A stretch of DNA of 64,000 nucleotides from Omnitrophica WOR_2 bacterium RIFOXYA2_FULL_38_17 (GCA_001805965.1 MHHG01000027.1:477-64476); one strand, 5' to 3'. Shown: positions 14,497-63,345, counted from the stretch's first letter. Numbers and translations: made by a program. Notes: generated by a model not told the origin, from the sequence alone.

Positions 14497-14616
14497 TTTA
14501 CTTACCTTACACTTTTTATTGTATAAAAAAACACTACTGATAATTTAATCGACAAAACCTGACGACACTTTATATTTTTTTGATTAAATACGCAGACATT
14601 CTTTGGAAGAACTTAG

Positions 14617-15929: not shown

Positions 15930-15968
15930 AATATATTTTAATATTCTCTATAATATGACATTCACATA

Positions 15969-35836: not shown

Positions 35837-36434
35837 AATTTGTAGATTATATCACACGACTTTTTATAGTCAAGCGATTTCAATATGCTTTAAAAACAAA
35901 ACTTGTTAAATTACAATATCTAGCGAAAAATCAATATTAACTTTTTTATCGACGATAATAATTCGAACTATAATCAATTTTACCCTGCTCAAACAATTAA
36001 AACATAAAAATACTTCTTGTTTCTATTGTTAAACGGTTCATAAGCCTAATATTTGCTAGTGTTTTAGTGTCAGCAAAATATTTAATTTGAAATAAAAATT
36101 TTCTCTGTTATAATATGGCACTTTAGTTATATTTTATTGCGCTTCCAATAAGTCTGTTGTTACCATGACTTTTTTGTTGCAATTTAGCATTAACTCTTGT
36201 AATCTTTGGTACAAGGGGCCGAAATATAACACAATCGGTTTTATTCTTTAACAAGTCGCTTTGCCAATACTTGCCGTAAAGTAATCCATTATATCGGGGC
36301 TAAAGAATCCACACCTGTGGAAAACTTGTTAATACTGTTATTGTTTCTGTAATTCATTTATTTTCAACATATTACGTCTTTGCAAATTAATCTTTTAAAC
36401 TTTAACTCCTCGTAAGAATCAGGAACTTGCTTAA
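35837..36434. other. Candidate chromosomal replication origin (oriC) in the rpmH/dnaA intergenic region
   Basis: A ~600-bp AT-rich non-coding region between divergent rpmH and dnaA. Gene strand bias switches exactly here. Two facing DnaA-box-like 9-mers are present: GAATCCACA at 36305-36313 and TGTGGAAAA at 36316-36324. Confidence 0.55.
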
Positions 36435-37769
36435 ATGTCTCTAAAAGCTGTTTGGGAAAATTCACAAAAAACTATAAAAGAAAAAATCGGTACAGCTTCT
36501 TATGATACCTGGTTTACTTCAATACAAATCAAAGAAACTTCTCCTCAAACGCTTTCTTTGGAAGCTCCTGATGATTTTTTTAAAAACTGGATAGTCGAAC
36601 ATTATAAAGTGCTGCTCGAGGAAATCCTTTCATCAGCAGCTTCTTTTGCTGTAAATCTGGAGTTTAAAGTAAATCCTGCTGTTTTAGAGGAGGCTCCCCG
36701 AGAGCAAGCTTCCATCTTTCAAAAAGAGTACAACAGTTTCACTAATGACACAACCAATCTAAATTCAAGGTTTACTTTTGATAATTTTGTCATCGGGCCA
36801 TCAAATCGATTTGCTTGTGCCGCTAGTCTGGCCGTCGCTGAATCTCCGGCTAAAGCATATAATCCGCTATTCATTTATGGCCAGGTCGGCTTGGGAAAAA
36901 CTCATTTGATACAAGCTATCTCTCAAAAAATATTGGAACTGAATTCAAACTTAAAAATCTGCTACAAGTCTTCCGAACAATTTACAAACGAATTGATAGA
37001 CGCTATACGACATAGATCAACGCCGGAGTTTAGAAAAAAATACCGCGAAATTGATGTTTTGCTTATTGATGATATACAATTTATCGCCGGCAAGGACTCT
37101 ACGCAAGAAGAGTTTTTCCATACATTTAATAATTTACATAACAATAGAAAACAGCTAATCATTACTTCTGACAGGCCTCCAAAGGAAATAGCAAAACTTG
37201 AAGAGCGCCTAAGTTCCAGATTTGCCTGGGGATTAATTGCAGATATTCAGCCTCCGGACTATGAAACAAGAGTGGCGATCTTAAAGAAAAAAATAGAACA
37301 TGAACCCCTTGCTGTGCCAGATGAAGTGATTCATTACATCGCGGATAAAATTAAAACCAATATAAGGGAACTTGAAGGAGCATTAATAAGAGTAACCGCT
37401 TATTCATTGTTGGAAGAAAAACCATTAACGTTTGAAATGGCAAGAAGTATCTTAAAAGATATGATAAAGGAAACAGCGAAAATTATTAGCATTGAGATGG
37501 TACAAAAAATGGTAGCTGAACGCTTTAATGTCACTTTGAATGAACTGAAATCAAATAAAAGAAACAAAAATATAGTTATGCCTAGACAAATTGCCATGTA
37601 TTTAGCCAGACAATTAACTCAGCTATCTTTGCCGGAAATAGGGGGGGCTTTTGGAGGTAAAGACCATACAACAGTTTTACACTCTTGTAAAAAGATTGTA
37701 AAAGATTTAGAATTAAACGCTGAACTAAAAAATTCTATCAACGGGTTATTGTTTGATTTAAAGCAATGA
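36435..37769 (+). CDS. dnaA: Chromosomal replication initiator protein DnaA
   Basis: AAA+ Walker A GQVGLGKTHL. The C-terminal DnaA signature (IAMYLARQLT...GGKDHTTVLHSCKKI) is present. Confidence 0.95.
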   Translation: MSLKAVWENSQKTIKEKIGTASYDTWFTSIQIKETSPQTLSLEAPDDFFKNWIVEHYKVLLEEILSSAASFAVNLEFKVNPAVLEEAPREQASIFQKEYNSFTNDTTNLNSRFTFDNFVIGPSNRFACAASLAVAESPAKAYNPLFIYGQVGLGKTHLIQAISQKILELNSNLKICYKSSEQFTNELIDAIRHRSTPEFRKKYREIDVLLIDDIQFIAGKDSTQEEFFHTFNNLHNNRKQLIITSDRPPKEIAKLEERLSSRFAWGLIADIQPPDYETRVAILKKKIEHEPLAVPDEVIHYIADKIKTNIRELEGALIRVTAYSLLEEKPLTFEMARSILKDMIKETAKIISIEMVQKMVAERFNVTLNELKSNKRNKNIVMPRQIAMYLARQLTQLSLPEIGGAFGGKDHTTVLHSCKKIVKDLELNAELKNSINGLLFDLKQ

Positions 37770-37911
37770 TTAAGTGTTTGTATGCAAGATTTTAACAGCC
37801 AAATTGTTCTTAAATAATTGAAATATAATCACTTTACACCTTGTTCGAATTATTAACAGGTACTACGTATACGATTACTATTTAGATCTTTAACTTAGTT
37901 ATAGGAAGGAA

Positions 37912-39009
37912 ATGAATAAGATGAAACTAAAAATGAAAAGAGATGATCTCCTAATAGGTATTCAAACTGTACAGAATGTTGTATCGAGTAAAGCAACACT
38001 ACCTATTCTATCTAATGTATTATTAGAGATTAGCAATAATATTCTGAAATTAAATGCAACAGATTTGGATATTGGGATTTCCTGTGCAATACCTGTGGAA
38101 TCTATTGAAGAAGGAGCAATAACTATTCCTGCAAAAAGATTTAGCGATATAATTAAAGAATTGCCTGTTGGGGATGTCAATATTTATGCAAAGAAAAACA
38201 ATCAAATTGATATTGAAGGAAAAAATTGTAGATTTAAGTTGAATGGTCTTCCAAAAGAGGAATTTCCAAAATTTCCAGAATTTAAAGACAATGAGATGAT
38301 CAGAATTCAACAGGCAGATCTAAAAGAAATGTTTAAATTAACCTCTTTTGCCGCGTCTCATGAGGAATCAAGGTATGTTTTAAATGGAGTTTTAATTGAA
38401 TTATCAGATGACCTTATAAGAATAGTTGCAACTGATGGTAGAAGATTGGCGAAAATTGAAAAAAAATTAAATTCTTCTATTAAAAAAGAGGTTAGTGTTA
38501 TTATTCCAATAAAAGCAGTGCAGGAAATCAACAGAAATCTCAAGGAAGAAGGGGAAGTCTCCTTTATTATAGGTACAAATCAAATTTTGTTCGATATTGA
38601 TGGAGTTTTGATTGCAACCAGGGTAATTGAGGGGGAATTTCCTAATTATAACCAAGTTATTCCAAAACCAATCAAAACAAAGGTCAATGTTAACACAAAA
38701 GATTTTCTTTATACTATTAAAAGGGCAAATTTATTAGCAACACCTGATTTTCAAGCGGTTAAATTCGAGATTTTTAATGATAAAATGGTTGTTTCTAAAC
38801 ATACTCCTGATGTTGGAGAATCGAGAGAAGAAATTCCTATTGAATATACTGGTCCGGAATTTATAGTTGGTTTTAATCCTGTTTTTCTAATTGATTTTTT
38901 AAAAAATATTAATAAAGAAACAATTGGTATTGAATTTTTAGGTCCTGATAAACCCGCAGTTATAAGGATAGATGATTATTTGTATTTAGCCTTACCAATG
39001 AGAATATAG
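37912..39009 (+). CDS. dnaN: DNA polymerase III beta sliding clamp
   Basis: 365 aa with a three-domain beta-clamp pattern. It lies immediately downstream of dnaA. Confidence 0.9.
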   Translation: MNKMKLKMKRDDLLIGIQTVQNVVSSKATLPILSNVLLEISNNILKLNATDLDIGISCAIPVESIEEGAITIPAKRFSDIIKELPVGDVNIYAKKNNQIDIEGKNCRFKLNGLPKEEFPKFPEFKDNEMIRIQQADLKEMFKLTSFAASHEESRYVLNGVLIELSDDLIRIVATDGRRLAKIEKKLNSSIKKEVSVIIPIKAVQEINRNLKEEGEVSFIIGTNQILFDIDGVLIATRVIEGEFPNYNQVIPKPIKTKVNVNTKDFLYTIKRANLLATPDFQAVKFEIFNDKMVVSKHTPDVGESREEIPIEYTGPEFIVGFNPVFLIDFLKNINKETIGIEFLGPDKPAVIRIDDYLYLALPMRI

Positions 39010-39096
39010 TGATTTTTAGCATAATTTGTGCATAAACAACAGGGTAGCCTAGGTGTCAATAGGATTGCAAAATAAAAAAAATAATAAATTGATAGA

Positions 39097-41897
<2,801 letters not shown>

Positions 41898-41944
41898 AAA
41901 AGAGAGTTAAAGATTCAAGAATATAGAGAGAAAGGTGTTTTTTA

Positions 41945-44398
41945 ATGAGAGACTTATCAAATAGAGAAAAGATAGTGCCCGTTTATATAGAAGAAGAGAT
42001 GAAGCAATCATATCTTGCTTATTCTATGAGCGTTATTGTTGGGCGCGCGCTTCCGGATGTGCGGGATGGGTTAAAGCCGGTCCATAGACGAGTTTTATAT
42101 GCAATGAAAGAGCTTAGCCTTGAACACAGCAAGCCGTATAAGAAATGTGCGCGTATTGTCGGTGAGGTATTAGGTAAGTATCATCCTCATGGAGATACTG
42201 CGGTTTATGATACCCTGGTTAGAATGGTGCAGGATTTTTCTTTAAGATATCCTCTTATAGATGGCCAAGGCAACTTTGGATCTATAGACGGAGATTCTGC
42301 TGCTGCTATGCGCTATACGGAGGCCAGGATGGCTTCTATTTCAGGCGAAATGCTGAAAGACATTGATAAAGAAACGGTCAGTTATGCTCCTAACTTTGAT
42401 GCTACATTACAAGAGCCGGTTGTTTTACCGGCAACTTTGCCAAATCTTTTGATAAATGGATCAAGTGGTATAGCTGTAGGAATGGCAACAAATATGCCTC
42501 CACACAACATCTCGGAAGCAGTTGACGCTGCTATTTTTCTTATTGATAACCCTGATGCACTTGTAAAACAATTAAACAAGATAGTTACCGGTCCTGATTT
42601 TCCGACGGGCGGTATTATTTGTGGGCGCCAGGGCATAGTAGATGCTTATAATACAGGCCGCGGCAAAATAATAGTTCGCGCAAAAGCGAACATTGAAAGA
42701 CAAAAAGGCAATAAAGACAGGATCATTATTTCGGAGATACCTTATCAGGTTAACAAGGCAAGATTGATAGAGTCGATCGCAGAGCTAGTGTCAACCAAAA
42801 AAATAGATGGCATTACCGATCTAAGAGATGAGTCCGACAAAGAAGGCATTCGTATAGTTATAGAGTTGCGCAGGGATGTAGAACCGCAAATAATTTTGAA
42901 CTATTTGTTTAAACATACGCAAATGGAAACAACTTTTGGCATTATCAACCTTGCATTGGTTAACAATAGCCCAAAGGTTTTGAATTTAAAACAGATTTTA
43001 GTCCATTTTTTGAACCACAGAAGGATAGTTGTTAGAAAGAGAACAGAGTTTGACCTTGATAAGGCCTTGCGCAGGGCTCATGTTTTGGAAGGATTAAAGA
43101 TAGCACTAGACAATATTAACCAGGTCATTAAAACCATCAGGGAATCGAAAAGTACGCCTCTTGCAAAAGTTGCCTTGATGAAAGGCTTTGGGCTTTCAGA
43201 GATCCAGTCCCAGGCAATCTTAGAAATGCAGTTGCAAAGGTTGACCGCGCTTGAAAGAAACAAGATAGACGAAGAATACAAAGCGCTGCTTAAAGACATA
43301 GAGAATTACCGGGCTATTTTAGAATCTGAAAAAATGATAGATGATATTATTAAAGGAGAGCTTGTTGATATAAAGAAAAAATATGGCGATGAGAGAAGAA
43401 CAGAAATTGCCGGCAAGGCTGAAGAGATTGAAATAGAAGACCTTATCGCCGAGGAAGAAATGGCGATAACCATAAGCAATACCGGCTATATTAAAAGATT
43501 AGCAGTGTCTTCATATCGTAACCAGAAAAGAGGCGGCAAAGGGGTATCTGCAATGACAACAAGAGAAGAGGACTTTGTTAAACATCTATTTATTGCCTCT
43601 TCTAAAGATTATCTTTTGATATTTTCTAATAAAGGGATTGTAAGATGGCTCAAGGTTTATGAAATCCCTGTAGCCTCGCGAAATGCAAAAGGCAAGAATA
43701 TTATCAACCTGTTGTCTCTTGAACAAGATGAAGAAATAAGTTCGATTGTTGCTGTTAAAGAATTTTTTGATGACCAGTTCTTGGTTATGTCGACAGCAAA
43801 GGGTAATATAAAAAAGACAAAATTATCAGCTTTCAGCAATCCTAGAAAAAGCGGAATAGTTGCGATCAGCCTAGATAAAGGGGATCGGCTGATAGGCATT
43901 TCTTTAAGTAATGGAAGGCATGAAATTTTGTTGGCTACAAGAGAAGGAAAGGCGTTGCGGTTTAATGAAAAGCACATTCGCGATATGGGCCGTGCTGCAA
44001 GAGGAGTAAAGGGAATTAATCTGGCTAAGGATGATGAGGTCGTAAGCCTTCAGGTTTTTTCATCAGATATTGGTAAAACTGGAAGCACTTTGTTAACAGT
44101 TTCATCAGGAGGCTTTGCGAAGAGGTCAGATTTTAATGATTATCGGGTACAGGCTAGAGGAGGCAAAGGTATTATTAACTTGAAGGTAACTCCCAAGAAT
44201 GGGAATGTTGTTGGTGTTCTGGCTGTAATGACTGAAGATGAAATCATGACAGTTACAAAGACTGGGATGATAGTTCGCTGCTCTACAAAGGATATTCGTA
44301 AATCAGGCAGAAGCACGCAGGGGGTTAAGCTTATTGTGTTGAAAAGCGGAGATAGGGTCAGCTCTGTTGCGAATGTTGTGGCAAAAGAAGCTGAATAA
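41945..44398 (+). CDS. gyrA: DNA gyrase subunit A
   Basis: The active-site region [10 protein letters not shown] with its catalytic Tyr is present. There is a GyrA-box-containing C-terminal beta-pinwheel. Confidence 0.95.
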
Positions 44399-44565
44399 GC
44401 AAGAAGCGTTAAAGCCTACAAAATTGTGCTGTGCGCGATTTTTTGTTGAATGCAACAATATAGATGTTTTTATTCTTCAGTTAAAAGCTGCGCCGCGAAG
44501 CGAGTTTTTTTGCTTGACGTATTAAGGTTTTTGAATATAATTAATGGCCTGACAGAGAATACTAA

Positions 44566-52340: not shown

Positions 52341-53249
52341 TTGATGTTTAAGAATGCAGGTTTTTTTACACTGTTTTTGGATGGCAGAACGGAGGACACA
52401 ATGAATCTTGAAAACAAAAAACAGTTTGTTGTTATTCTTATAGCCATTGGGCTTGGTTTAGTTGCTGCGTTTTTAACTAGCCAATATGTCCAAAACAATA
52501 TTAAGGCTCAGACAAAGGCCTTGGCGCGAGATTATGGCAAACAAAATGCTGGTTTTGCAAAAGAGATTGAGACCTTAAGAAGCGAGGTCAAAAGACAGCG
52601 TGATGAGATCAAGCAGCTCGAAACAAAGCAAAGCCAATATAAACCAGGAGTTGCAGCGCAGGCTACAACTGAAAAGGTTCAGCCAGTTGTTCAGATGGAT
52701 TCTTTTTCAGTGAGAACGCCTCCTGGAAAACGAGCAGTTACTATTTTAGTTGATTCTCTATCGGCTGTTGGAGGGCTTATTAATCCAGGAGACTTCGTTG
52801 ATATTATCGGTGAGATAAAGATACCGGAAGAATCCGGTGATGCTAAGTCTGTAAAGGACGTGACCACTGTTTTATTCCAGAATATTCAAGTGCTGGCAGT
52901 TGGAACTAATTTTAAGCCTCTTGGAAGCGCTCCTGCTTATGAAGCACAGCAAAAGGCCAGATCCCTTAACATAACAGTTGCGATAAGTCCAGAAGAGTCA
53001 GGATTGATTGCCTTTGCTCAGGCAAATGGAAAATTACAGCTGACTTTAAGGCCGCCAACGGATGGTGGTTTGCAGCTGCTTCAGGTTGCCTCTTGGGATA
53101 CTTTAGCTGAATATGTTATGGACCACCAGGGAACAGAACTCATGGTTCCTCAAAAGCAAGCAAATATTTTTGAAGCAGATGACCAAGAAAAAGATGAAGT
53201 TCGTCCTTATATCCAGATTTTTAAATCAGGAGCAGAGTCTAATTTTTAG
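52341..53249 (+). CDS. cpaB: Flp pilus assembly protein CpaB/RcpC
   Basis: An N-terminal TM anchor, a SAF-like domain and an RcpC C-terminal domain are present. The probable start is the Met at about 52401 (MNLENKK). Confidence 0.75.
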   Translation: MMFKNAGFFTLFLDGRTEDTMNLENKKQFVVILIAIGLGLVAAFLTSQYVQNNIKAQTKALARDYGKQNAGFAKEIETLRSEVKRQRDEIKQLETKQSQYKPGVAAQATTEKVQPVVQMDSFSVRTPPGKRAVTILVDSLSAVGGLINPGDFVDIIGEIKIPEESGDAKSVKDVTTVLFQNIQVLAVGTNFKPLGSAPAYEAQQKARSLNITVAISPEESGLIAFAQANGKLQLTLRPPTDGGLQLLQVASWDTLAEYVMDHQGTELMVPQKQANIFEADDQEKDEVRPYIQIFKSGAESNF

Positions 53250-53598: not shown

Positions 53599-55251
53599 AT
53601 GGATATTAAAAGTATTTTTGAAAAAATAAAGTTTGTCGCGCTAGGGGTCGTTTGTGTATCCGTAGCAATTATTTTTGCCTCATCGTTGGCGCAGGCCAAT
53701 GCCCTGGATGATATTTATAAAAATCTTGATACAACGAATGATAATGAGATTTTTATGGTTGTGGGAGAGTTGACGATAGCTAAGGTTACAAATATGACAA
53801 GGCTTTCAATTACAAATCCAGATATTGCTGATATTGTTGAAGCTGACGATAAAGAGATTCTTCTTATAGCAAAACAGCCTGGGCAAACAATACTTTTTGT
53901 CTGGGATGATGCGGGAAAAAGAATGGTTTTTGTTAATGTTCAAGCCGCAGATATGGGAATGCTTGATATGGCCATCCAAAGAATAGATACTCTTTTAAAA
54001 AAGGGAAGAATTGAAGGGATAAAGTTAGAGCCTAATAAAAGAGAAGGCAAGATATTTGTGACAGGTGATCTTGCAGAAGAAAATGAAGAGATGCTTGATA
54101 AGATCTTGGATGGATATGCGGATATTATTGTGAATCTTATAAGGAAAGAAGAGATTCAAGACCTTATTCAAGTAGACATGCAAATGACAGAATTAAACAC
54201 CACTCTTACAAAGAGCTTGGGCATAGATTGGTCTGCTGGAACGAGTGGCGTATCCTTGACATATCCTGAAGAGTTGCCGGAAATGGATGGTACGATAGGT
54301 GACTTTTTTAAGATTGGAGATTTTAGCAGAACATCAATGTTAACAGCAACAGTTAAAGCTTTGTTAGAAAAAGGAGAAGCCAGGGTTCTTTCTCGACCAA
54401 AAGTAGTAGTTATAAGCGGGGAAGAGGCAAGTTTCTTGGTTGGGGGGGAAATCCCTATTAAGACAACAACTTCTTCTGCTGAAGGGACCCAAGAAAATGT
54501 TTCCTTTAAAGAATATGGTATTGGATTAACGATAACGCCGACAATAAAAAAAGAAAAAATAGATATTCAGCTAAATGTTGAGATCAGTGATGTTGCTTCT
54601 GGAACAGGAAACGAAACGTCTTTTTTTACAGAGACAACAACAACGCGAGTTCTTTTAAACAATAAACAAACGATGGTTCTTGCTGGTCTAATCAAAGAGA
54701 ACAGAGGTTCTAGCGTGCGAATGGTTCCTTTTTTTGGGCAAATACCCGTAGTTGGGATGCTTTTTAGGTCTAAAGGAACTAATCCATCAGAGACTGATAA
54801 AGAGCTGGTTATTTCAATGACTCCTACTATTTTAGAGAGAAATCGCAACAATATAGAAGAGGTAAAAGAGGAAAAGGTTGAAGAATATAGAACGACGGCC
54901 ATATATAAACAAAAAGTTTCTTCATCCTCTTCAGTTCCCTACTATTTGGGAATACCAAAAAACATGACTGAGTATGTAAGAAATGTTCAGAAGCAAATTT
55001 CAAAAGCGATTCTTTATCCTCCCGAGGCAAAAAGATATGGGTGGGAAGGAACAGTTAGGATGAATTTGCTGATACTAAAAGATGGAACTCTTGCATATGC
55101 TTTAATTCAAGAATCATCAGGGCATGAGATTATGGATGAAAGTGCTCTAAGGGCGGCAAAAAGACTTGCGCCGTACTCAGGGTTTCCTTCAGATGTAGAC
55201 CTGCAGGAATTGAATATTACTGTTCCAATTGTTTACAGCTTTAAGAAATAA
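53599..55251 (+). CDS. cpaC: Tad/Flp secretin CpaC/RcpA fused to a C-terminal TonB_C domain
   Basis: A signal peptide, BON/N-domain-like region and secretin core (VLSRPKVVVISGEEASFLVGGEIPI...) are present. The last ~100 aa match TonB_C (YPPEAKRYGWEGTVRMNLLILKDGTL...ESSGHEIMDESALRAAKRLAPYSGFP). Confidence 0.8.
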   Translation: MDIKSIFEKIKFVALGVVCVSVAIIFASSLAQANALDDIYKNLDTTNDNEIFMVVGELTIAKVTNMTRLSITNPDIADIVEADDKEILLIAKQPGQTILFVWDDAGKRMVFVNVQAADMGMLDMAIQRIDTLLKKGRIEGIKLEPNKREGKIFVTGDLAEENEEMLDKILDGYADIIVNLIRKEEIQDLIQVDMQMTELNTTLTKSLGIDWSAGTSGVSLTYPEELPEMDGTIGDFFKIGDFSRTSMLTATVKALLEKGEARVLSRPKVVVISGEEASFLVGGEIPIKTTTSSAEGTQENVSFKEYGIGLTITPTIKKEKIDIQLNVEISDVASGTGNETSFFTETTTTRVLLNNKQTMVLAGLIKENRGSSVRMVPFFGQIPVVGMLFRSKGTNPSETDKELVISMTPTILERNRNNIEEVKEEKVEEYRTTAIYKQKVSSSSSVPYYLGIPKNMTEYVRNVQKQISKAILYPPEAKRYGWEGTVRMNLLILKDGTLAYALIQESSGHEIMDESALRAAKRLAPYSGFPSDVDLQELNITVPIVYSFKK

Positions 55252-55307: not shown

Positions 55308-57632
55308 ATGAGTGCAAAAATAATAACTATTTTTAGTAACAAAGGTGGCGTTGGCAAAACGTTTGTTTCTGTTAATATGGCTACGGCCTTGGCCCTTGCA
55401 AAGTATAAAGTTCTTTTGATCGATATGGATTTTCAGGCTGGTCAGGATATGGCAAGAACCATGAACCTGTCTCCAAAGAACTCGATTGTTGATGTTCTGC
55501 AGCAAATAGAAGCAGTTACAGACCATGTCGTTATTAGAAGGTTTTCTGCGCGACATACTTGTGGATTGGACTTTATGGCGGCAGTTAAGAATACCCGTCA
55601 AATAAGTTTAATTACGCCAGACAATATAAAACCATATCTTAGAAAAATCTCAGAAGTATATGACTTTATTCTTATCGACGCAGGAAAAGCTTTCCATGAA
55701 CCACTTATTACAGTGTTCGATTATTCCAACCTTATTTTATTAGTGGCAACTCCGGATATTTTGGCTGTTTATCAAATAAAGTGGTGCCTTGATGTTCTTC
55801 AGAGCCTGCAGTTTCCAATGAAAATGATCAAGCTGCTTTTGAACAGGTCTGAGAGCCGTGGAAGCGTTGCCTGGCAGGAAGTTAAATCTGCACTTACTTG
55901 TGAGATTTTTGGACATGTGCCTTCCGATGGCAAGGCAGTGGGCATTGCTCTTAACAGGGGAATCCCCTGTGTTATAGATAATCCAAAGAGTCATGTTGGA
56001 GAAGCTTTTATCAAGCTAGTTGATGCTTTCCGAAAGGAAAGCAATTTTGTTCCTGCAATGGATGTTGAAAAGATAAGGAGCAAAGAAGAGCTGCCTAAGC
56101 CAGGAGAATTTTGGGCTAAATATGGCATTGCTCAGCAAATGGGTACGGCGCCTTCAGGAAAAGCTTACGCTTCGCAGGAAGATGAAATAAGTATTTTAAA
56201 AAGAAAAATTCATCTAAAGTTGGTTGACAGGCTTAACAAAGAAGGCATTTCTCTAGAGGCTTTAAGCGATCCTGAATCTATACATAAGGTTAAAAAAATG
56301 GCTGAAGGAGTAGTTGGTACTTTGCTTACAGAAGAAGCTGGTGGCAAGATATCTTCACATGAAGAGAGGGTCCGTTTAGTCAGAGATATTGTCAACGAAG
56401 CTTTAGGCTTAGGACCATTAGAAGATCTTTTAGCTGATCCGGATATAACGGATATTATGGTCAATTGTAGAGACGAGATTTATGTTGAAAAGAGCGGAAA
56501 ACTTGTTCTTACTGATTATAGTTTTGTTTCGGAGGACAAGATGAGGGCTATTATTGACAGGATTATTGCTCCTTTAGGTAGAAGAATAGATGAATCCACG
56601 CCGATGGTTGATGCGCGTTTGCCTGATGGCTCAAGAATTAATGCTATCATTCCGCCGCTTTCTCTGCGTGGGCCAATGATAACTATCAGAAAGTTTGGGG
56701 CTGAAAGACTTAATACTTTTGATTTGCTAAATAAATATCATAGCGTGACCAAAGAGATGGTTTTGTTTTTGAATTGTGCTGTTATTGGCCGCAAAAATAT
56801 TATTGTTTCAGGGGGAACAGGTGCGGGTAAAACAACATTGTTAAACGTTGTCTCTGAGTTTATTCCTGATAATGAAAGAATTATAACTATTGAGGACGCG
56901 GCTGAGTTGCGATTAAAAAAAAGCCATTGCGGAAGACTGGAGTCTAGGCCCAGAAACATTGAAGGTAAGGGCGAGGTTACCATTAGAGATTTATTTATTA
57001 ATTGCCTGAGAATGAGGCCTGACCGTATAGTTATCGGTGAGTGCCGTGGCCCTGAAGTTTTAGACATGTTGCAGGCTATGAACACGGGCCATGATGGATC
57101 TTTGACCACATTGCACGCAAATACAACTAGAGACGTTGTTACTCGTATGCACTCAATGATCCTTTTAAGCGGCATTGAATTGCCTGTCAGGGCTATTAAT
57201 GAAATGATCGCTTCAGCTATCGATATTATTGTTCAGATCAATCGTTTTTCAGATGGAACTCGAAAGGTCACACAAATTTCTGAAACTTGTGGCATGGACG
57301 AAGATCACCAGCTGATATTGAAAGATGTTTTTATTTATAATCAAAAAGGGATTGATTTGGATGGGCGTGTCGTTGGAGACTATGAAGCAACAGGCTATGT
57401 TCCGGAAAGCTTCAATGACTTTGTAACGCGAGGGCTGAAAATTGAAAAGAGCCTTTTTGATAAACGTACTATTTATGTTAATACTGATGAAAAAATAGAG
57501 GTTCCTGAAGTCGAGATATTAGCCCCTGAGGAAGTAAAAAAACTAGTTGTTGGACAATCTAAAACAGTGCAACCTAATGCTCAGCCTAAACAGGCTCAGC
57601 CGCCTACTCTGCCGCCAAAGCCGGCGGAGTAG
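55308..57632 (+). CDS. Fused Tad ATPases: CpaE/TadZ-like ParA-family ATPase + CpaF/TadA secretion ATPase
   Basis: The N-terminus starts with a deviant Walker A (FSNKGGVGKTFVS, ParA/MinD type). The middle region carries the CpaF N-domain (GLGPLEDLLADPDITDIMVNCRDEIYVE). The C-terminal half is a VirB11/TadA-type ATPase with Walker A GGTGAGKTTLLN, Asp/His boxes, and a Pro/Gln-rich tail. Confidence 0.85.
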   Translation: MSAKIITIFSNKGGVGKTFVSVNMATALALAKYKVLLIDMDFQAGQDMARTMNLSPKNSIVDVLQQIEAVTDHVVIRRFSARHTCGLDFMAAVKNTRQISLITPDNIKPYLRKISEVYDFILIDAGKAFHEPLITVFDYSNLILLVATPDILAVYQIKWCLDVLQSLQFPMKMIKLLLNRSESRGSVAWQEVKSALTCEIFGHVPSDGKAVGIALNRGIPCVIDNPKSHVGEAFIKLVDAFRKESNFVPAMDVEKIRSKEELPKPGEFWAKYGIAQQMGTAPSGKAYASQEDEISILKRKIHLKLVDRLNKEGISLEALSDPESIHKVKKMAEGVVGTLLTEEAGGKISSHEERVRLVRDIVNEALGLGPLEDLLADPDITDIMVNCRDEIYVEKSGKLVLTDYSFVSEDKMRAIIDRIIAPLGRRIDESTPMVDARLPDGSRINAIIPPLSLRGPMITIRKFGAERLNTFDLLNKYHSVTKEMVLFLNCAVIGRKNIIVSGGTGAGKTTLLNVVSEFIPDNERIITIEDAAELRLKKSHCGRLESRPRNIEGKGEVTIRDLFINCLRMRPDRIVIGECRGPEVLDMLQAMNTGHDGSLTTLHANTTRDVVTRMHSMILLSGIELPVRAINEMIASAIDIIVQINRFSDGTRKVTQISETCGMDEDHQLILKDVFIYNQKGIDLDGRVVGDYEATGYVPESFNDFVTRGLKIEKSLFDKRTIYVNTDEKIEVPEVEILAPEEVKKLVVGQSKTVQPNAQPKQAQPPTLPPKPAE

Positions 57633-57650: not shown

Positions 57651-57995
57651 TTGAGAATACTCAATAAAACAAAACAGAACACAATAGCAGATAAGGCCCT
57701 TCTTGCAGATAATTTTTTAACTAGAATGGTTGGGCTCCTTGATCGAAAGTCTTTGAAAGAAGGAGAAGCTCTGGTTATTACCAGGTGTAATTCTATTCAT
57801 ATGTTTTTTATGAAATTTGCCATTGATGCTGTTTTTGTTAGCAAAGAGAACATAGTTGTTGGTCTAGTTCAAGATATCAAGCCATTTCAGCTCAGCCGCA
57901 TTTATTTTAAGTCTAGCTATGTTGTAGAGCTGCCATCCAGCACAATATTTAGATTAGGAATTGCTATTGGCGATCAATTAGCAATCTTAAGCTAA
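57651..57995 (+). CDS. DUF192-family protein
   Basis: 114 aa. The DUF192/COG1430 pattern matches ...RMVGLLDRKSL.EGEALVI..CNSIHMFFMKFAIDAVFV...VVELPSSTIFRLGIAIGD. Confidence 0.55.
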   Translation: MRILNKTKQNTIADKALLADNFLTRMVGLLDRKSLKEGEALVITRCNSIHMFFMKFAIDAVFVSKENIVVGLVQDIKPFQLSRIYFKSSYVVELPSSTIFRLGIAIGDQLAILS

Positions 57996-58143: not shown

Positions 58144-60168
58144 ATGGGAGTAGTCCACAAATTGAGAAAGGAAGTTTTTGACTTTATTATCAACCAGAAG
58201 AAGGAAGATCCCTCTCTTAGTTGTCGACAAATATCAGATCTTATAAGCAGTAAGTTTGAAATTAAAGTATCAAAGTCTTCAGTTAACTCTGTTTTAAAAA
58301 GCACTCAGTTAAGCAGTTCAGTGGGAAGACGGGTCCTAAAAAAAGCGATGTCTAAAAAATTCCAAATTCCTCAACAAAAGAAACAACAATTACTAGAGAG
58401 CATTTCAACCCTTGGTTTTACCTTTGACCATAAGGCTACGGCTGAAGAGGATCCGCTGGGAGCGATCAAGGACAATGTCTTTGCAGAAAAGCAGCAGGAA
58501 GAAGGCTTTTCTCTAGAAAAACTTTCTCTGGAGCTTCAGGAGCATGATAGAAAAAAACGCAAGAGCAGGATTTTTTATGATGCAACAAACCAAGAAGTTG
58601 AAGATATAGCAGCGGCTCAAATGACACAAGGAGTACAGGGAGAAAATAAAGAAGCAAGCGCCAATAAAGAGAAGAAGGCATATATTGTTCCCGCTGGTCC
58701 GATATTCTTTGATGAGGAACAATTCCTTTATGATTTAAAAATTGCCAGAGAAGATAAAGAAAAAGAAAAAAATAATAGGCATTTGTATGATAATGCGGGA
58801 GTGGTTTTTTTAAAAGCTGCGCAGATTGATACAGATGGAGAAAATCTTTTGGGAGATCTGTTTAGAAAAAATTCAAAAGGTGTTGTTGTCGATAATTTTA
58901 ATAATATTTGTTCGGGCTTGCTGTTTCTTAAAGCATTTAATATTCAATCTGTAGAGAATATTGAAAAATCAAAGAATGATGCTTTATGGAGATTAAATGG
59001 CTTTAGAAAAGGGTATCCAGGAAGAGAAAATCTTTTTGGGTGGACGCAGAAGATTGATTTTTCAAATCAATTACAATTGGAATATCTTAATGAAAAAGAG
59101 CAGTCTTTAAGCAGTATAAAGGCTTTCAGGATCATCTTTGAGGATGCCACAAGCATTATCCTTGATGCCCAAATGAGGTCTATTTGGAGAGAGCCAGTAC
59201 AGCAAGATTTGTTTTCTTCTTTAAGTAGTGCAATGACGCTTCTTTCCAAAAAACTTATAAGCAATAATGAGTGTTTGGTGATGGATGTTTTAAGAGAAAA
59301 AGGCATCAATAGAACGGATTTTGCAAGAATTCTTGCTTCTTTTTTTGATATTATTGGCAGAAAAATGCGCAAAATTGAAGTATTAAGCGAAAAACAAGAA
59401 ATACTTGCTGAATTTACTCTTATTCCTTCAATTAAGCGCTTTTTTATTGTGGGATTTAGGCCTTATCAGGAGATTTTTAAAGAATATATTTGTAGTATTA
59501 CAGATACTGTTGAATTTCCCTATTATGACAGGCCAAGAGACAGAGTCTTATACTATTCGGAAGTAAATGTTCCATTGGTGGCTTTATTGAAGGATTTTGT
59601 AAGTATTCCTCAAATTCTTCAAGAAGAAAGGCCTTTAAAATGGGTGCTTTTAGGACAACAAAAGAAAAAAGCATCTCAAATAGCTCTTTTGACAAACATG
59701 ACTACAGAGAAAGCAGAAAGTATTATTTCAAAATACTTAACCCGTTGGCCAAGTGCATTTAATAAACAATATATAGAGGAAGGAGACAGAACAGACATTA
59801 ATAGAGAAGAGCTTAATAAAAATCAGAAAGAATATCAATGTTACGCTGGTGACTTTGTTGAAAAGGTGTTTGACAATTTTGGAGATATTTTTAACGATTA
59901 CATTTTAACCCTGCATAAGTATTGTTTAGATAAATATTTTCCAAAACAAAAAAGTGAAATTGACATAAAAACTATGGTGTCAATATTTTATGGATTGCAG
60001 GGTTTTGTAAGGGAAAGTTATGATCAATTAATTGTTACAATTTTGATACCTCAAGGGTACAATTTCCTTGATATCTTGGAATTTGCCATTAGTAGAGTAA
60101 ATGACAGACACTTAGTAACAAAGGATGGCAGAGGTATTTATGTAAGTGCTGAAAAAGTAAAAGCTTAG
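58144..60168 (+). CDS. Hypothetical 674-aa cytoplasmic protein (possible N-terminal HTH), embedded in the Tad locus
   Basis: A long ORF with a good SD (AAAGGGATAAAGTATG) and no TM or signal peptide. The first ~60 aa look HTH-like (SLSCRQISDLISSKFEIKVSKSSVNSVLKS). No recognisable catalytic motif. Confidence 0.6.
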   Translation: MGVVHKLRKEVFDFIINQKKEDPSLSCRQISDLISSKFEIKVSKSSVNSVLKSTQLSSSVGRRVLKKAMSKKFQIPQQKKQQLLESISTLGFTFDHKATAEEDPLGAIKDNVFAEKQQEEGFSLEKLSLELQEHDRKKRKSRIFYDATNQEVEDIAAAQMTQGVQGENKEASANKEKKAYIVPAGPIFFDEEQFLYDLKIAREDKEKEKNNRHLYDNAGVVFLKAAQIDTDGENLLGDLFRKNSKGVVVDNFNNICSGLLFLKAFNIQSVENIEKSKNDALWRLNGFRKGYPGRENLFGWTQKIDFSNQLQLEYLNEKEQSLSSIKAFRIIFEDATSIILDAQMRSIWREPVQQDLFSSLSSAMTLLSKKLISNNECLVMDVLREKGINRTDFARILASFFDIIGRKMRKIEVLSEKQEILAEFTLIPSIKRFFIVGFRPYQEIFKEYICSITDTVEFPYYDRPRDRVLYYSEVNVPLVALLKDFVSIPQILQEERPLKWVLLGQQKKKASQIALLTNMTTEKAESIISKYLTRWPSAFNKQYIEEGDRTDINREELNKNQKEYQCYAGDFVEKVFDNFGDIFNDYILTLHKYCLDKYFPKQKSEIDIKTMVSIFYGLQGFVRESYDQLIVTILIPQGYNFLDILEFAISRVNDRHLVTKDGRGIYVSAEKVKA

Positions 60169-60288: not shown

Positions 60289-60318
60289 TTGACACTAAAG
60301 CTTGTATTATGATATACT
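60289..60318 (+). promoter_or_regulatory. Predicted sigma70-type promoter of the flp pilin array (TTGACA-n18-TGaTATACT)
   Basis: A -35 TTGACA at 60289-60294 and an extended -10 TG-a-TATACT at 60310-60318. It is followed by a ~270-nt leader before the first pilin ATG. Confidence 0.55.
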
Positions 60319-60590: not shown

Positions 60591-60746
60591 ATGAAAAAAT
60601 GGAATCATAAAGGTCAAAATCTAATTGAATATGCCATGGTCGCAGCTTTAATTTCCGTAGCAGTTGTTGCTATGAGTACCTACGTGTATAGGTCAGTTCA
60701 GGCCACCCAGCAGGTAATACAAGAAGAATTCAAAGCATCACAATAA
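60591..60746 (+). CDS. flp: Flp-family type IVb prepilin (short, canonical; likely major pilin)
   Basis: 51 aa: MKKWNHKG|QNLIEYAMVAALISVAVVAMSTYVYRSVQ... It has the Flp G/XXXXEY processing motif and a single hydrophobic helix. It is under 60 aa, so not in the ORF track. Confidence 0.75.
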   Translation: MKKWNHKGQNLIEYAMVAALISVAVVAMSTYVYRSVQATQQVIQEEFKASQ

Positions 60747-60889
60747 TATTTACGCGAGAAAAGACGAACAGATAATAATTTCTGTGTCATTGCTTGCGTA
60801 AGGCTTAAAAATTAGTGTATTTTTAGGCTTAATTAAGCAAAAACCCTTGTTTAGTAACAGGGATTGTTATTATCGAAGGAGGATAAATA

Positions 60890-61120
60890 ATGCTTAAAAG
60901 GATGATTCATAAAACATCTGGCAAAATGAAAAGAGGCCAGAGCACAGTAGAGTACATTATTTTGATAGCTGCTGTTTTAGCCGCTCTCATTATTTTCTTA
61001 GGACCAGGAGGGCCATTCCAGACTGCATTTAACACAACAATCAACTCTGGTACAGATGGTATGGAAGACATGGCAGACAGATTAGCTGGTTCAAGACCTG
61101 CTGCTAACAGTACCCCTTAA
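60890..61120 (+). CDS. Flp-family prepilin paralog 2 (76 aa)
   Basis: MLKRMIHKTSGKMKRG|QSTVEYIILIAAVLAALIIF. A strong SD GAAGGAGG precedes it. Confidence 0.75.
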   Translation: MLKRMIHKTSGKMKRGQSTVEYIILIAAVLAALIIFLGPGGPFQTAFNTTINSGTDGMEDMADRLAGSRPAANSTP

Positions 61121-61179
61121 TCAGGAGAATAAGAAGGAATCCAGTTATTTGGAGAAGTTAAAATTAGGAGGTAAAATCA

Positions 61180-61542
61180 ATGCTTAGAAAATTGATTAAA
61201 AATAAAAAAGCGCAAAACACAGCCGAGTATGCAATTTTGATATCTCTGGTTGTTGCTGGTATTATTGCCATGCAGACTTATGCTCAAAGAGCATTGCAGG
61301 CAAGAGTTCGTGATGCCGCACAGCATCTTGCTACACAAACCAATGGTTTAGGCAACACAGTACAATATGAACCTTATTATTTATCAACTGATTATAACAT
61401 TATTCGGGATGAAACTATGACCGAAAGTTATGACTCAGATGCTATTTTGAAAGGTGAAAATTCTACTAGAACAAGGCAAGAGGGTGGTCGTCAGACAACT
61501 TCTTACGATACATCAGTTGCTGGTATTCAAAACGGTCTCTAA
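61180..61542 (+). CDS. Flp-like prepilin paralog 3 with extended C-terminal tail (120 aa)
   Basis: ...KKA|QNTAEYAILISLVVAGIIAMQTYAQRALQARVRDAAQ, with Ala at -1. The Ser/Thr/Tyr/Asp-rich tail contains YEPYY. SD is AGGAGG. Confidence 0.7.
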   Translation: MLRKLIKNKKAQNTAEYAILISLVVAGIIAMQTYAQRALQARVRDAAQHLATQTNGLGNTVQYEPYYLSTDYNIIRDETMTESYDSDAILKGENSTRTRQEGGRQTTSYDTSVAGIQNGL

Positions 61543-61612
61543 TAGTAGACCTGATTGGTTAGTAACATAAGAAGTGCTCTTTAGAAGAGGTAAAATTAAG
61601 GAGGCTAAAACA

Positions 61613-61942
61613 ATGTTTGAATATTTAAATAAAAGAAGAAAGAAAGGCCAGAGCACGCTAGAATATGCAATTTTGATTATCATTATCATAGGCGCTCTAG
61701 TCTCAATTCAGGTCTACATAAAGAGAGGTATTCAAGGTCGCTTAAAAGGTGCGGCTGATGATATCGGAGAACAATTTTCCCCTGGAAACACAAATGTGCA
61801 AAAAACAGTAAGAACTATAAGTTATACATCAGATACCAATATTGGTGGTGTTGTAACTTCAGCGTTACTTAACGACGAAGAAACAGTTACCCAAGGAACT
61901 TCAAGAATTGCTAATGTTGAGCAAGAATATTGGGGAAGTTAA
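61613..61942 (+). CDS. Flp-like prepilin paralog 4 with extended C-terminal tail (109 aa)
   Basis: The start is taken at ATG 61613 after SD AAGGAGG. MFEYLNKRRKKG|QSTLEYAILIIIIIGALVSIQVYIKRGIQGRLKGAADDIGEQF. Confidence 0.7.
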   Translation: MFEYLNKRRKKGQSTLEYAILIIIIIGALVSIQVYIKRGIQGRLKGAADDIGEQFSPGNTNVQKTVRTISYTSDTNIGGVVTSALLNDEETVTQGTSRIANVEQEYWGS

Positions 61943-61988
61943 TAAAAGCTGTTTTGTAAAACGTAAGTTCTTAGTGTGACAATCAGAT

Positions 61989-62031
61989 CCGGTTTGCCGA
62001 GAAATATTTTTTCGGCAAACCGGTTTTTTTT
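61989..62031 (+). terminator. Strong intrinsic terminator after pilin paralog 4
   Basis: CCGGTTTGCCGA-gaaatatttttt-TCGGCAAACCGG followed by TTTTTTTT. Confidence 0.85.
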
Positions 62032-62237
62032 GCACAAAGAAAAGATTTATCGATGTTTGTTTGTGATTAAATTTTTTGGTAAAATAACGCAAAAAAGACA
62101 AAAAGGGTTTCCGTAAGTTTATGGTAGTGTTAGTTTTGTACGTTTGAAAAATCAATCCCAGCTCTATTCATTTACATAAAAATAATGTATACTTATTGTA
62201 TGAGTCTTAAAATTATTTAAAAAGGGGCGAGTTTGTT

Positions 62238-62621
62238 ATGCTAAGGATTGTTAAGAATAATAGAGCTCAGGCGGTAGTCGGCGAATATGTTATAGTGTTT
62301 TTTATTGCCATCGGAGTTATTACAGCAATGAGCACTTATTTTCAAAGAGTTGTTCAGGGCAGAATTTATGATGCCAGAGATGCAATGGTCAGTCTTACAA
62401 GAAATCAATCAGCAGGATATTTTAACGGCAACATTTTTTTTCATTATGAGCCCTATTATCAAAATACTGATTCAGAAACCTATCGCAGTCTTATTTCGAG
62501 AACTAGTCTTGTCGAGGGGGGGACCAGTGGCATTTACAGGGTCGAATATGATGATCTTTCAAGGATAACTAGCACAAGTGTGACTAAGCCGCCAAGGGAT
62601 GCAGATAAGGAATATGAATAG
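62238..62621 (+). CDS. Flp-like prepilin paralog 5 with extended C-terminal tail (127 aa)
   Basis: MLRIVKNNRA|QAVVGEYVIVFFIAIGVITAMSTYFQRVVQGRIYDARD. The tail contains HYEPYY and resembles paralog 3. Confidence 0.7.
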   Translation: MLRIVKNNRAQAVVGEYVIVFFIAIGVITAMSTYFQRVVQGRIYDARDAMVSLTRNQSAGYFNGNIFFHYEPYYQNTDSETYRSLISRTSLVEGGTSGIYRVEYDDLSRITSTSVTKPPRDADKEYE

Positions 62622-62642
62622 CAAATTAGTCTAGAGGGAAGA

Positions 62643-62996
62643 ATGTTTAAAGGGAATTTACAATTTTGGAAAAATAATAAAGCTCAAAGCATTCTAGAGT
62701 ATTCATTGATCATAGGAATAGTGACGGTGATTTTTTTTAATATGGGGACATTTCTTAAAAGAGGCACGCAGGGGATGATTAAGACGATTGCTGATCAAAT
62801 CGGAGATCAAAGGAATGGTGACCAGATTTTTGATGTTGAAGAAGGCTTTATGGTAAATGCTTTTATTGACACTGATGCCACGACAGAAAAAACAAGAGGG
62901 GAAGATGCCGGTGTCGTAACGCATTATTATAATGATAGGATGCACTCTGAGTCAACGACTGAAACACTCTTAGGCTTTCAGGAAGAAGAAGATTAA
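62643..62996 (+). CDS. Flp-like prepilin paralog 6 with extended C-terminal tail (117 aa)
   Basis: MFKGNLQFWKNNKA|QSILEYSLIIGIVTVIFFNMGTFLKRGTQGMIKTIADQIGDQ. It ends with an acidic C-terminus. Confidence 0.7.
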   Translation: MFKGNLQFWKNNKAQSILEYSLIIGIVTVIFFNMGTFLKRGTQGMIKTIADQIGDQRNGDQIFDVEEGFMVNAFIDTDATTEKTRGEDAGVVTHYYNDRMHSESTTETLLGFQEEED

Positions 62997-63030
62997 AAAA
63001 ATAAAGTTGTTATTGAAACAGGAGAGATTT

Positions 63031-63345
63031 ATGTTTAAAAGAATAAGAAAAGGTCAAACATCAATGGAGTTCCTGATCTTGATGACAGTTATTCTTGCGG
63101 CTTTTTTATCGATAGGGAATTATTTCAAAAGAGGAGTACAGGGAAGATGGAAAACCGCTGTTGATGAATTAGGAGAACAATATGATCCTAGGACGGGAAA
63201 CACTATGCTGGTACATAGGATAATCTCAAATACGGATACGCAGATCATTTCTTTAAACACCACAGGAGGCTGGTGGACGTCGAGAAGAGATATGACGAAT
63301 GTCGTTGAAACTAAATCCGGACATGTTTCCGCTGGGTCATATTAA
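63031..63345 (+). CDS. Flp-like prepilin paralog 7 with extended C-terminal tail (104 aa)
   Basis: The start is taken at ATG 63031 after SD AGGAGAG. MFKRIRKG|QTSMEFLILMTVILAAFLSIGNYFKRGVQGRWKTAVDELGEQYD. Confidence 0.7.
   Translation: MFKRIRKGQTSMEFLILMTVILAAFLSIGNYFKRGVQGRWKTAVDELGEQYDPRTGNTMLVHRIISNTDTQIISLNTTGGWWTSRRDMTNVVETKSGHVSAGSY

Follow-up and report, generated by a model that had tools for sequence, protein, structure and literature searches.

The seven small genes at positions 60591-63345 of the window (the whole stretch of DNA that was analysed, 64,000 nucleotides in length) are, on sequence evidence, real pilin genes of a Tad-type pilus machine, and the array they form is probably the pilin complement of an Omnitrophota Tad-type (type IVc) machine, with a high-expression fibre module, P1-P4, and minor or tip pilins from P5 onward. 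Comparison across about 80 species indicates that this pilin set is ancient, fixed and kept in the same order, and not a variable or antigenic repertoire. The Omnitrophota are widespread, ultra-small and probably predatory or host-dependent bacteria, none of which has been isolated in pure culture, and, besides their Tad locus, they have few conserved candidates for an organelle of prey or host contact.

The array consists of seven consecutive plus-strand ORFs over 2755 nt, each encoding a basic leader (8-16 aa) and one hydrophobic helix, as the first-pass annotation had described. P1 (60591..60746) encodes a 51-aa Flp-like prepilin with the leader MKKWNHKG and a cleavage site at G↓QNLIEY (the arrow marks the predicted cut), its mature form of ~43 aa being all helix. 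P2 (60890..61120; 76 aa, G↓QSTVEY), the opening gene of the P2-P3-P4 module, has a GPGGP helix break and a short tail. The remaining ORFs bear out the annotated lengths of 104-127 aa: P3 (61180..61542; 120 aa, A↓QNTAEY), P4 (61613..61942; 109 aa from its ATG, G↓QSTLEY), P5 (62238..62621; 127 aa, A↓QAVVGEY), which opens a tightly packed downstream block, P6 (62643..62996; 117 aa, A↓QSILEY), whose tail is acidic, and P7 (63031..63345; 104 aa from its ATG, G↓QTSMEF). Ala at -1 was correctly noted in three paralogs (P3, P5 and P6), as was a YEPYY motif common to P3 and P5, which is invariant in 41 P3 orthologs, and the tails are indeed rich in Ser, Thr, Tyr, Asp and Glu (39-48% of tail residues vs 28% in other window proteins). 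The motif (G/A)↓Q-x3-E-(Y/F), ascribed to all seven, holds in six; in P5 an extra residue puts the Glu at +6, where it also lies in 48/70 P5 orthologs. That the motif is not a chance pattern is supported by its retention in 45-104 orthologs per paralog and by purifying selection on the ORFs. The block Y-x-(K/Q)-R-G-x-Q-G-R...A-x-D-x-x-G-x-Q, described as present in all but the first paralog, is complete or nearly so in P4 (YIKRGIQGR...AADDIGEQ), P7 (YFKRGVQGR...AVDELGEQ) and P6 (with F for Y and M for R), but is partial in P3 and P5 and absent from P2, and P1 also carries a partial copy. Similarly, of the strong GGAGG-type ribosome-binding sites credited to every gene, those of P2, P3 and P4 are perfect, but P1 has GAGGA, P5 a weak GGGG, P6 GAGGG and P7 GGAG.

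Prepilin (class III signal) identity of the Tad type is supported by profile tests and by the machine genes that flank the array. Judged by the Pfam gathering cut-offs (32.2 bits for Flp_Fap, PF04964; 23.7 for Class_IIIsignal, PF04021; 22.9 for TadE, PF07811), P2 (31.4 bits) and P7 (24.3 bits) pass for PF04021, with P4 (15.7) and P6 (13.2) below the cut-off and no match in P1, P3 or P5; matches to this family at E up to 0.01 were found in 5/60 P4 orthologs. P1, called a canonical Flp, has the appropriate size but falls just short of the Flp_Fap cut-off (29.5 bits, E 6.5e-7), and a PF04964 match is precomputed for a gene identical to it in related loci L003 and L005. A Flp_Fap profile search at E up to 10 returned no match for P2-P7, the TadE profile had none among P1-P8, P3 and P5 matched no Pfam family, and an NCBIfam search gave no usable family. 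Flps are short (~50-80 aa, up to 97 in KilP) and fully helical; P1 and P2 fit by length, P3-P7 are too long, and P3 and P4 have four predicted beta strands after the helix. A G↓xxxxEY motif followed by a hydrophobic stretch, as in Flps, is found in 7/7 (with the -1 Ala and P5 spacing already described), and the Tad machinery (TadA, TadB/C, TadZ, RcpA, RcpC) lies alongside. A short basic leader followed by +1 Gln and +5 Glu, the EppA-type signal, is likewise present, with +1 Gln in 7/7 and in most orthologs, and +5 Glu in 6/7. Profile comparison showed all of the paralogs to be mutually homologous (95-99.9% probability), the P5 profile matching the P3 group (E 5e-30 over 86 columns) and the P7 profile the P4 group (E 8e-37). 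A sequence search of the PDB with the seven-paralog profile reached only E 0.27, for Geobacter PilA-N. The family is large, with 5065 clusters matched at E up to 1e-3 in a representative library, the best matches mostly of 100-165 aa; of ten clusters looked up for taxonomy, the one assigned was from Omnitrophota.

The machine genes upstream of the array, all on the plus strand, encode RcpC/CpaB (52341..53249; PF16976, E 6e-24), a secretin of the RcpA/CpaC type with a C-terminal TonB_C domain (53599..55251; PF00263, E 1e-37, PF13629, and PF03544, E 3e-15), a 774-aa TadZ(CpaE)-TadA(CpaF) fusion ATPase (55308..57632; AAA_31/ParA at residues 4-240, T2SSE at 366-646 with E 5e-58), a 114-aa DUF192 protein (57651..57995; PF02643 on the orthologous gene) and, between the ATPase and the pilin array, a conserved 674-aa protein without a Pfam family (X674; 58144..60168), which is found at the same position in related loci at 20-67% identity. 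More pilin-like genes follow P7, so the array goes beyond the seven annotated. P8 (63389..64000, plus strand; G↓QTAMEL) runs off the window and encodes a pilin-like protein of 445 aa that matches no Pfam family, the first 204 aa lying inside the window; it is visible at full length in related loci L001-L006, and its position is conserved in other species. Past the window end, the related loci encode P9 (a 79-aa TadE-like protein with a weak TadE match of 17.3 bits, below the cut-off of 22.9), a 1598-aa TadG-like protein with a (K/R)GQ-x-A-x-x-LIL N-terminus and no Glu at +5 in 60 orthologs, P10 (a long paralog of 121 aa), TadB and TadC. The 1598-aa gene was considered for the 'giant gene' position of West-Roberts et al., but this was not adopted, as the pertinent passages of that text say only that the secretion locus precedes the giants. 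No prepilin peptidase was found among the multi-TM ORFs of the window, nor in any related locus up to 10 kb from the array, and N-terminal processing of the array proteins is therefore assumed.

Several features divide the genes between P4 and P5. In four independent species pairs, pooled pS was 0.07-0.22 for P1-P4 vs 0.39-0.64 for P5-P7 (Fisher p 9e-7 to 2e-22), i.e., synonymous divergence was 2-6 times lower in P1-P4, with P1 the lowest of the locus, a signal that could reflect recombination or RNA-level constraint instead of expression. An upstream GGAGG is present in 69% of species for P2, 85% for P3 and 98% for P4, compared with 8% for P1 and 2-9% for P5-P10, some of the weak calls for P5-P10 potentially being start errors, since the start codons of these orthologs were chosen heuristically. 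Median spacer length is 161-169 nt between P4 and P5 vs 15-58 nt elsewhere in the array. In addition, joint duplication of P2-P3-P4 has occurred in several lineages, namely L021, L033, L039 and L075, and L035 and L042 hold partial second copies; the copies are mostly 54-100% identical, with P2 down to 35% in L075.

The P1-P4 module is closed by a long hairpin at 61980..62032 (plus strand) that resembles an intrinsic terminator, its stem of 16 pairs being followed by TTTTTTTT, with a T8 tract. The motif occurs once per locus, directly after P4; a hairpin of at least 10 pairs is present at 62/82 equivalent P4 junctions, and compensatory changes were seen in 16/19 hairpin pairs across 43 species. 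Rfam held no family for it, nor for the long spacer upstream of P1. With its covariation and invariant core, the hairpin is a candidate regulatory RNA element that may set the ratio of major to minor pilins.

That the tails have little similarity to each other is true of their sequences, but profile comparison links them, and AlphaFold2 models of P3 (helix 2-55, strands 68-107, pLDDT 73) and P4 (helix 15-54, strands 60-99, pLDDT 72) have the same layout of a long helix plus a four-stranded sheet, predicted with moderate confidence (pLDDT 72-73, pTM 0.30-0.32). Fold searches produced no significant match to any solved pilin. By the predictions, the tails would form a compact beta-sheet head and not hang loose.

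From these observations we infer that the abundant subunits of the fibre are P2-P4 and perhaps P1, and that minor or tip pilins are encoded by P5-P7 and the genes that follow. The minor-pilin role first proposed for the paralogs is plausible for P5-P7. All seven proteins would be made as prepilins whose single hydrophobic helix inserts in the inner membrane, and would be cleaved between the Gly or Ala and the following Gln by a prepilin peptidase with its gene elsewhere. The P1-P4 module, i.e., the helix-only Flp P1, the short P2, and P3 and P4 with their predicted beta-sheet heads, would be expressed at a high level up to its conserved hairpin terminator and most likely supply the bulk fibre subunits, with P2, P3 and P4 acting jointly, possibly in a mixed polymer. 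P5-P7, which run gaplessly into P8, P9, the gene for the 1598-aa TadG-like protein and P10, would contribute, at a putatively lower stoichiometry, minor pilins that prime assembly, sit at the tip and present the large protein to a target cell, an arrangement that would parallel the adapter and TadE/F/G tip complexes of the Myxococcus Kil pilus and might link the locus to predation.

A tentative extension of this reading is that the Tad fibre is a heteropolymer, in which P2, P3 and P4, perhaps with P1, are co-produced at a high level and form a repeating multi-subunit unit, two of them bearing beta-sheet heads on the shaft. Known Tad fibres are homopolymers of helix-only Flp, by which P1 would be a likelier bulk subunit than P2-P4. 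If a heteropolymer were nevertheless formed, it would be a filament of the Tad/Flp lineage that differs from the Flp pili solved so far, which are homopolymeric and helix-only, and it would be intermediate in form between archaeal Epd pili and bacterial Tad pili, and duplication of the module would give some species alternative shafts.

It is unlikely that the locus builds no extended surface pilus but a short periplasmic pseudopilus, like that of a T2SS, which pushes the large neighbour or other effectors through the secretin. The number and sizes of the pilin-like proteins and the predicted helix plus sheet do resemble the GspG-K set, the 1598-aa protein is embedded in the array, and the pertinent passages of a preprint describe the Omnitrophota locus as T2SS-like and adjoining giant surface proteins (bioRxiv 10.1101/2023.11.21.568195). 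The machine, however, is of the Tad type, with its TadZ-TadA fusion, RcpC, two single-domain T2SSF platform genes and a secretin with a T2SS-T3SS_pil_N domain; P1 is Flp-like, and characterised Tad systems produce surface pili (PMC12075869), although a pseudopilus and a pilus are not separable from sequence alone.

Improbable, too, is that all seven genes encode minor or adapter pilins. In Myxococcus the gene for the major pilin, KilP, is unlinked to the kil clusters, where the locus-encoded short Flps are adapters (PMC12075869), and the true major pilin here could by that precedent lie elsewhere; moreover, no known Tad fibre is built from beta-sheet-headed pilins. The conserved perfect GGAGG of P2-P4, the strong synonymous constraint in P1-P4 and the dedicated terminator after P4 are marks of high expression that are atypical of minor pilins and so disfavour this; transcription of the Kil adapters is reported to be very low (PMC12075869).

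About 80 species-level Omnitrophota loci preserve the order RcpC-secretin-TadZA-X674-P1...P10-TadB-TadC, and in these each paralog has 1:1 full-length orthologs in fixed order. Each of the best 120 matches was best matched by one particular paralog, nearly all at full length, with P4 accounting for 68 of them, most at 63-100% identity over the full length. Orthologs of P4 were present in 177 species genomes and those of P1 in 76 loci (median identity 65%); P3 had at least 40 full-length orthologs of 58-99% identity among the matches listed, and a protein identical to P6 is encoded on at least 24 contigs, one of them from Omnitrophica WOR_2 bacterium GWF2_38_59. The tails are under purifying selection (dN/dS 0.04-0.25; 0.09 for P6 and 0.07 for P7), the array has 2-4 differences in six further assemblies of this species, and the gene gain seen elsewhere is of the whole P2-P3-P4 unit, not tail shuffling. 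No silent cassettes, long repeats or repeats of invertible segments were found within the array, its sole DNA repeat being a diverged signal-peptide segment (66-76% identity). Antigenic or phase-variable pilin repertoires, e.g., Neisseria pilE/pilS, are marked by strain variability, silent cassettes or recombination repeats, and diversifying selection, and the array departs from them in its tail dN/dS, its repeats and its near-identity among same-species assemblies. The original suggestion of alternative or antigenically variable pilins, with tails diversifying to evade recognition or to change adhesion specificity, is thus largely refuted and scarcely credible, despite the strong differences between the tails within a genome, their composition and the extra module copies in some species.

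This conserved locus is the same as the Omnitrophota secretion locus described as adjoining giant genes in passages of West-Roberts et al. (bioRxiv 10.1101/2023.11.21.568195) and Seymour et al. (PMC10066038). Omnitrophota Tad loci containing small genes of class III signal homology were already noted there, the relevant part of the 2023 preprint (bioRxiv 10.1101/2023.11.21.568195) mentioning the small genes in general terms only; the orthologous paralog groups, predicted fold, two-module layout, module duplication and hairpin do not feature in the passages concerned of either paper. The small genes can now be viewed as encoding about eleven pilin-like proteins, a fixed set that is clearly divided internally, which provides a parts list with testable roles for structural or proteomic studies. 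They also appear to extend the Flp lineage, usually short and helix-only, to mid-size pilins with predicted folded heads and Epd-like +1 Gln signals.

Among known systems, the minor pilin and tip sets of T4aP and T2SS (FimU-PilVWXE with PilY1; GspH-K) are similar in having several low-expression pilin paralogs co-transcribed with a large protein not of pilin size, and in one member being without Glu at +5, the counterpart of which here is the 1598-aa protein. Unlike those sets, the array proteins have an N-terminal motif of the Flp/Epd type, not N-methyl-Phe, and there is no sequence or significant fold match between them. Tad/Flp pili, including the Myxococcus xanthus Kil system, share with the locus TadZ and the TadA ATPase, two single-domain platform proteins, RcpC and a secretin (PMC12075869; PMC6668835), as well as the G↓xxxxE(Y/F) motif, a short helix-only Flp with larger, locus-encoded TadE/F/G-like pilin-like proteins, and an association with predatory or host-dependent bacteria; the Kil pilus combines a major Flp with adapter Flps and has TadE/F/G-like trimers at its tip (PMC12075869). 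Known Flps, however, are fully helical proteins of 50-97 aa, one to three per locus, whereas eight Flp-derived paralogs are fixed here, six of them of 104-127 aa, and the two modelled, P3 and P4, have a predicted beta-sheet head. Further differences from known Tad systems are the Gln at +1 throughout, the fusion of TadZ to TadA, the TonB_C domain on the secretin and a locus without tadV. The Epd pili of Methanococcus maripaludis likewise have leaders (5-16 aa) ending in Gly, followed by +1 Gln and +5 Glu (PMC3875500), and pair a short pilin (51-76 aa) with several about twice as long (130-156 aa in Epd, 104-127 aa here), and the family whose cut-off P2 and P7 pass, PF04021, is the Epd-type or DUF361 family. 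The host here differs in being a diderm bacterium with a secretin, and its pilins have the +6 Tyr/Phe of Flp that Epd pilins lack, often have Ala at -1, and come from genes grouped as a single array within the locus of the machine. An Epd-like archaeal system has been proposed as the ancestor of Tad systems (PMC6668835), and the extended Flp lineage of the Omnitrophota bears on that origin of bacterial Tad pili from archaeal pili.

The seven small genes, P1 to P7, and their downstream neighbours are best read as encoding the pilins of a Tad-type pilus in Omnitrophota. The seven open reading frames proposed in the first-pass annotation were confirmed, all on the + strand: P1 (60591-60746, 51 aa), P2 (60890-61120, 76 aa), P3 (61180-61542, 120 aa), P4 (61613-61942, 109 aa counted from ATG), P5 (62238-62621, 127 aa), P6 (62643-62996, 117 aa) and P7 (63031-63345, 104 aa counted from ATG). 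At the N-terminus of each product is a basic leader of 8-16 residues, the last of which is Gly in P1, P2, P4 and P7 and Ala in P3, P5 and P6; next come Gln, a Glu at +5, Tyr or Phe, and ~20 hydrophobic residues. In P5, one additional residue after the cleavage site shifts this Glu to +6, a position retained in 48 of 70 P5 orthologs. Some other features had been described too generously. The block YxKRGxQGR...AxDxxGxQ, assigned to all but the first gene product, is complete or nearly so in P4, P6 and P7, partial in P3 and P5 (and also in P1), and absent from P2, while P1, called a canonical Flp, scores 29.5 bits against Flp_Fap, just under the Pfam cut-off of 32.2. The PF04021 (Class_IIIsignal) cut-off was passed by P2 and P7, with weak matches for P4 and P6, and P3 and P5 matched no family in Pfam or NCBIfam.

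Upstream of the array, and on the same strand, are genes for a Rotamase_2 PPIase, RcpC/CpaB, a secretin with a C-terminal TonB_C domain (53599-55251), a TadZ (CpaE)-TadA (CpaF) fusion ATPase of 774 aa (55308-57632), a DUF192 protein and X674, a 674-aa protein without known family (58144-60168). X674 holds its position in all related loci, yet its identity among them is just 20-67%, and a Pfam search returned no family for it. Its first ~60 residues resemble a helix-turn-helix, and it may regulate the downstream pilin module. The spacer between X674 and P1 (60169-60590, 420 nt) had no match in Rfam. Starting ~270 nt before the P1 start codon would imply a long 5' leader, and a strong sigma-70-like site lies there (60289-60318, TG present, 11 of 12 positions matching). 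Farther upstream, the window includes a chromosomal origin region (~36000-44400), with dnaA (36435-37769), dnaN, gyrB and gyrA at 36.4-44.4 kb, and yidC, parA and parB on the other side; at ~36 kb both the sign of GC skew and the gene orientation switch. No prepilin peptidase gene was found in the window, nor at up to 10 kb from the array in any related locus.

The genes past the window end were read from longer contigs of the same species, located via an exact-sequence look-up of P6. Beyond P7 are P8 (445 aa, G|QTAMEL), P9 (79 aa, G|QVLIEF, with a weak TadE match), a protein of 1598 aa just past the window end (12493-17289 of the same-species contig L003), P10 (121 aa, A|QAVFEY, with a Cys-rich tail), which is an eighth long paralog, and then TadB and TadC. 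By sequence, therefore, the locus encodes about eleven proteins with pilin-type N-termini rather than seven. The 1598-aa protein has a pilin-like N-terminus (KGQVAIILII...) without Glu at +5, and its orthologs conserve (K/R)GQ-x-A-x-x-LIL...ALIFYA, likewise with that Glu missing. Its C-terminal part is Cys-rich, a Pfam search found no domain in it, and its orthologs with full-length calls are mostly about 900-1724 aa long (median 1154 over 60 calls, of which the shorter are truncated or split ORFs). It is likely a TadG/KilN-like tip protein. A possible alternative is that the locus builds a T2SS-like pseudopilus that exports this large protein; the preprint that first noted the locus labels it T2SS-like (bioRxiv 10.1101/2023.11.21.568195).

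Within the pilin set, P1-P4 are set apart from P5-P7 by five independent observations. Pooled synonymous divergence across four independent pairs of close species was 0.07-0.22 for P1-P4 versus 0.39-0.64 for P5-P7 and 0.26-0.56 for the machine genes, and the contrast between the two parts was significant in all four pairs (Fisher p 9e-7 to 2e-22). The strong GGAGG-type Shine-Dalgarno sequence that had been attributed to all seven genes is perfect only before P2, P3 and P4; in ~80 species GGAGG precedes P2 in 69%, P3 in 85% and P4 in 98%, and its frequency is 8% for P1, 2-9% for P5-P10 and 0-29% for machine genes. Spacers within each part have medians of 15-58 nt, and those between X674 and P1 and between P4 and P5 measure ~350 nt and ~165 nt, respectively. 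In four equivalent loci (L021, L033, L039 and L075, at about 8-12 kb in each), P2-P3-P4 has undergone tandem duplication as one unit, and two more (L035 and L042, also at about 8-12 kb) have an incomplete second copy; identity between copies is mostly 54-100%, falling to 35% for P2 in L075, and the duplications apparently arose independently in several lineages. One separate clade (e.g., L029, L043, L052 and L071) has an additional P2-like gene between P4 and P5.

P4 is followed by a long hairpin (61980-62032) flanked by an A-run on its 5' side and a T-run on its 3' side. Hairpins of at least 10 pairs, commonly 19-28, occur at 62 of 82 equivalent junctions, and the motif is found once per 20-kb locus, directly past the P1-P4 module. 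In an alignment of 43 species, compensatory changes are seen at 16 of the 19 stem pairs, and the core GGCTTAC/GTAAGCC is nearly invariant; because a plain terminator would not need such a core, the hairpin may bind a protein or serve as a processing site. An Rfam search assigned it to no family.

The preferred reading is that P1-P4 would be a strongly expressed structural module ended by a terminator, in which P2, P3 and P4 would work together. P5-P7 would head a compact run of genes for minor pilins with weak translation, which would continue via P8, P9, the TadG-like 1598-aa protein and P10 to TadB and TadC. We infer the processing, fibre incorporation, stoichiometry and tip placement of these pilins. 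By analogy with KilP, it is also possible that all seven are minor pilins, with the major pilin encoded elsewhere, but that is a poor match for the strong and conserved ribosome-binding sites, for the constraint on synonymous sites in P1-P4 and for the terminator past P4.

AlphaFold2 models built from ortholog alignments gave P4 a helix at 15-54 and four strands within 60-99 (mean pLDDT 72), and P3 a helix at 2-55 and strands within 68-107 (mean pLDDT 73). At this moderate confidence the tails probably fold, and the order of elements is that of a type IV pilin; searches of solved structures with the predicted folds gave no significant match. Profile-profile comparison showed that all paralog groups are homologous, in two sub-lineages, P4 with P7 and P10 (P6 nearby) and P3 with P5, with P9 only weakly related; several of the alignments extend well into the tails.

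A search with a P3-P7 profile yielded 2609 proteins (E up to 1e-3). Each of the 120 matches listed, nearly all full-length, best fits one particular paralog; among them, P3 orthologs are 58-99% identical and P4 orthologs mostly 63-100%. In metagenomes the family comprises 5065 clusters (50% identity, E up to 1e-3), with best matches mostly of 100-165 aa, and it lies outside Pfam coverage, since PF04021 reaches just 5 of 60 P4 orthologs. Scanning a single genome for each species placed P4 orthologs in 177 genomes, titled Omnitrophota for the most part. A substantial minority, most of them co-assembled (binchicken-type) MAGs, bear Planctomycetales/Planctomycetia titles, and isolated ones are titled Saccharibacteria or Phycisphaerae. 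Array-bearing contigs under Saccharibacteria, Micrarchaeota or Planctomycetales names include L020 (3.4 kb), P0020 (2.6 kb) and many MAG contigs titled 'uncultured Planctomycetales'; on contigs with an Omnitrophota-type array, these three names are probably binning or labelling errors.

Tail columns have conservation of 0.63-0.93, with motifs such as YEPYY invariant, and tail dN/dS against the closest other species is 0.04-0.25, much like the values for RcpC and the secretin. In the 80 loci examined, the genes keep the order RcpC-secretin-TadZA-X674-P1-P2-P3-P4-P5-P6-P7-P8-P9-large protein-P10-TadB-TadC. An antigenically variable or cassette-type repertoire is essentially refuted, because the tails are conserved under that low dN/dS, paralog orthology and order are fixed, six other same-species assemblies each differ from the window at only 2-4 positions of the 2755-nt array, and the sole DNA repeat inside it is the diverged signal-peptide segment (66-76% identity).

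Tad loci in Omnitrophota were already known (PMC10066038). In the portions of the literature consulted, we found no earlier description of fixed paralog groups among the small genes of these loci, of helix-plus-sheet pilins predicted within the Flp lineage or, for this locus, of the two-module layout, the P2-P3-P4 duplication or the conserved hairpin past P4. The array proteins resemble archaeal Epd pilins (PMC3875500) in their +1 Gln, +5 Glu and the presence of short pilins beside ones about twice as long, and are Flp-like in the Tyr or Phe at +6; Tad systems are thought to have descended from an Epd-like system (PMC6668835). The proposed division into P1-P4 and P5-P10 would match the usual distinction of major from minor pilins. 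The Kil pilus of Myxococcus combines a major Flp, adapter Flps and TadE/F/G-like trimers as exchangeable tips (PMC12075869), and the proposed structural module and minor-pilin block would follow the same logic.
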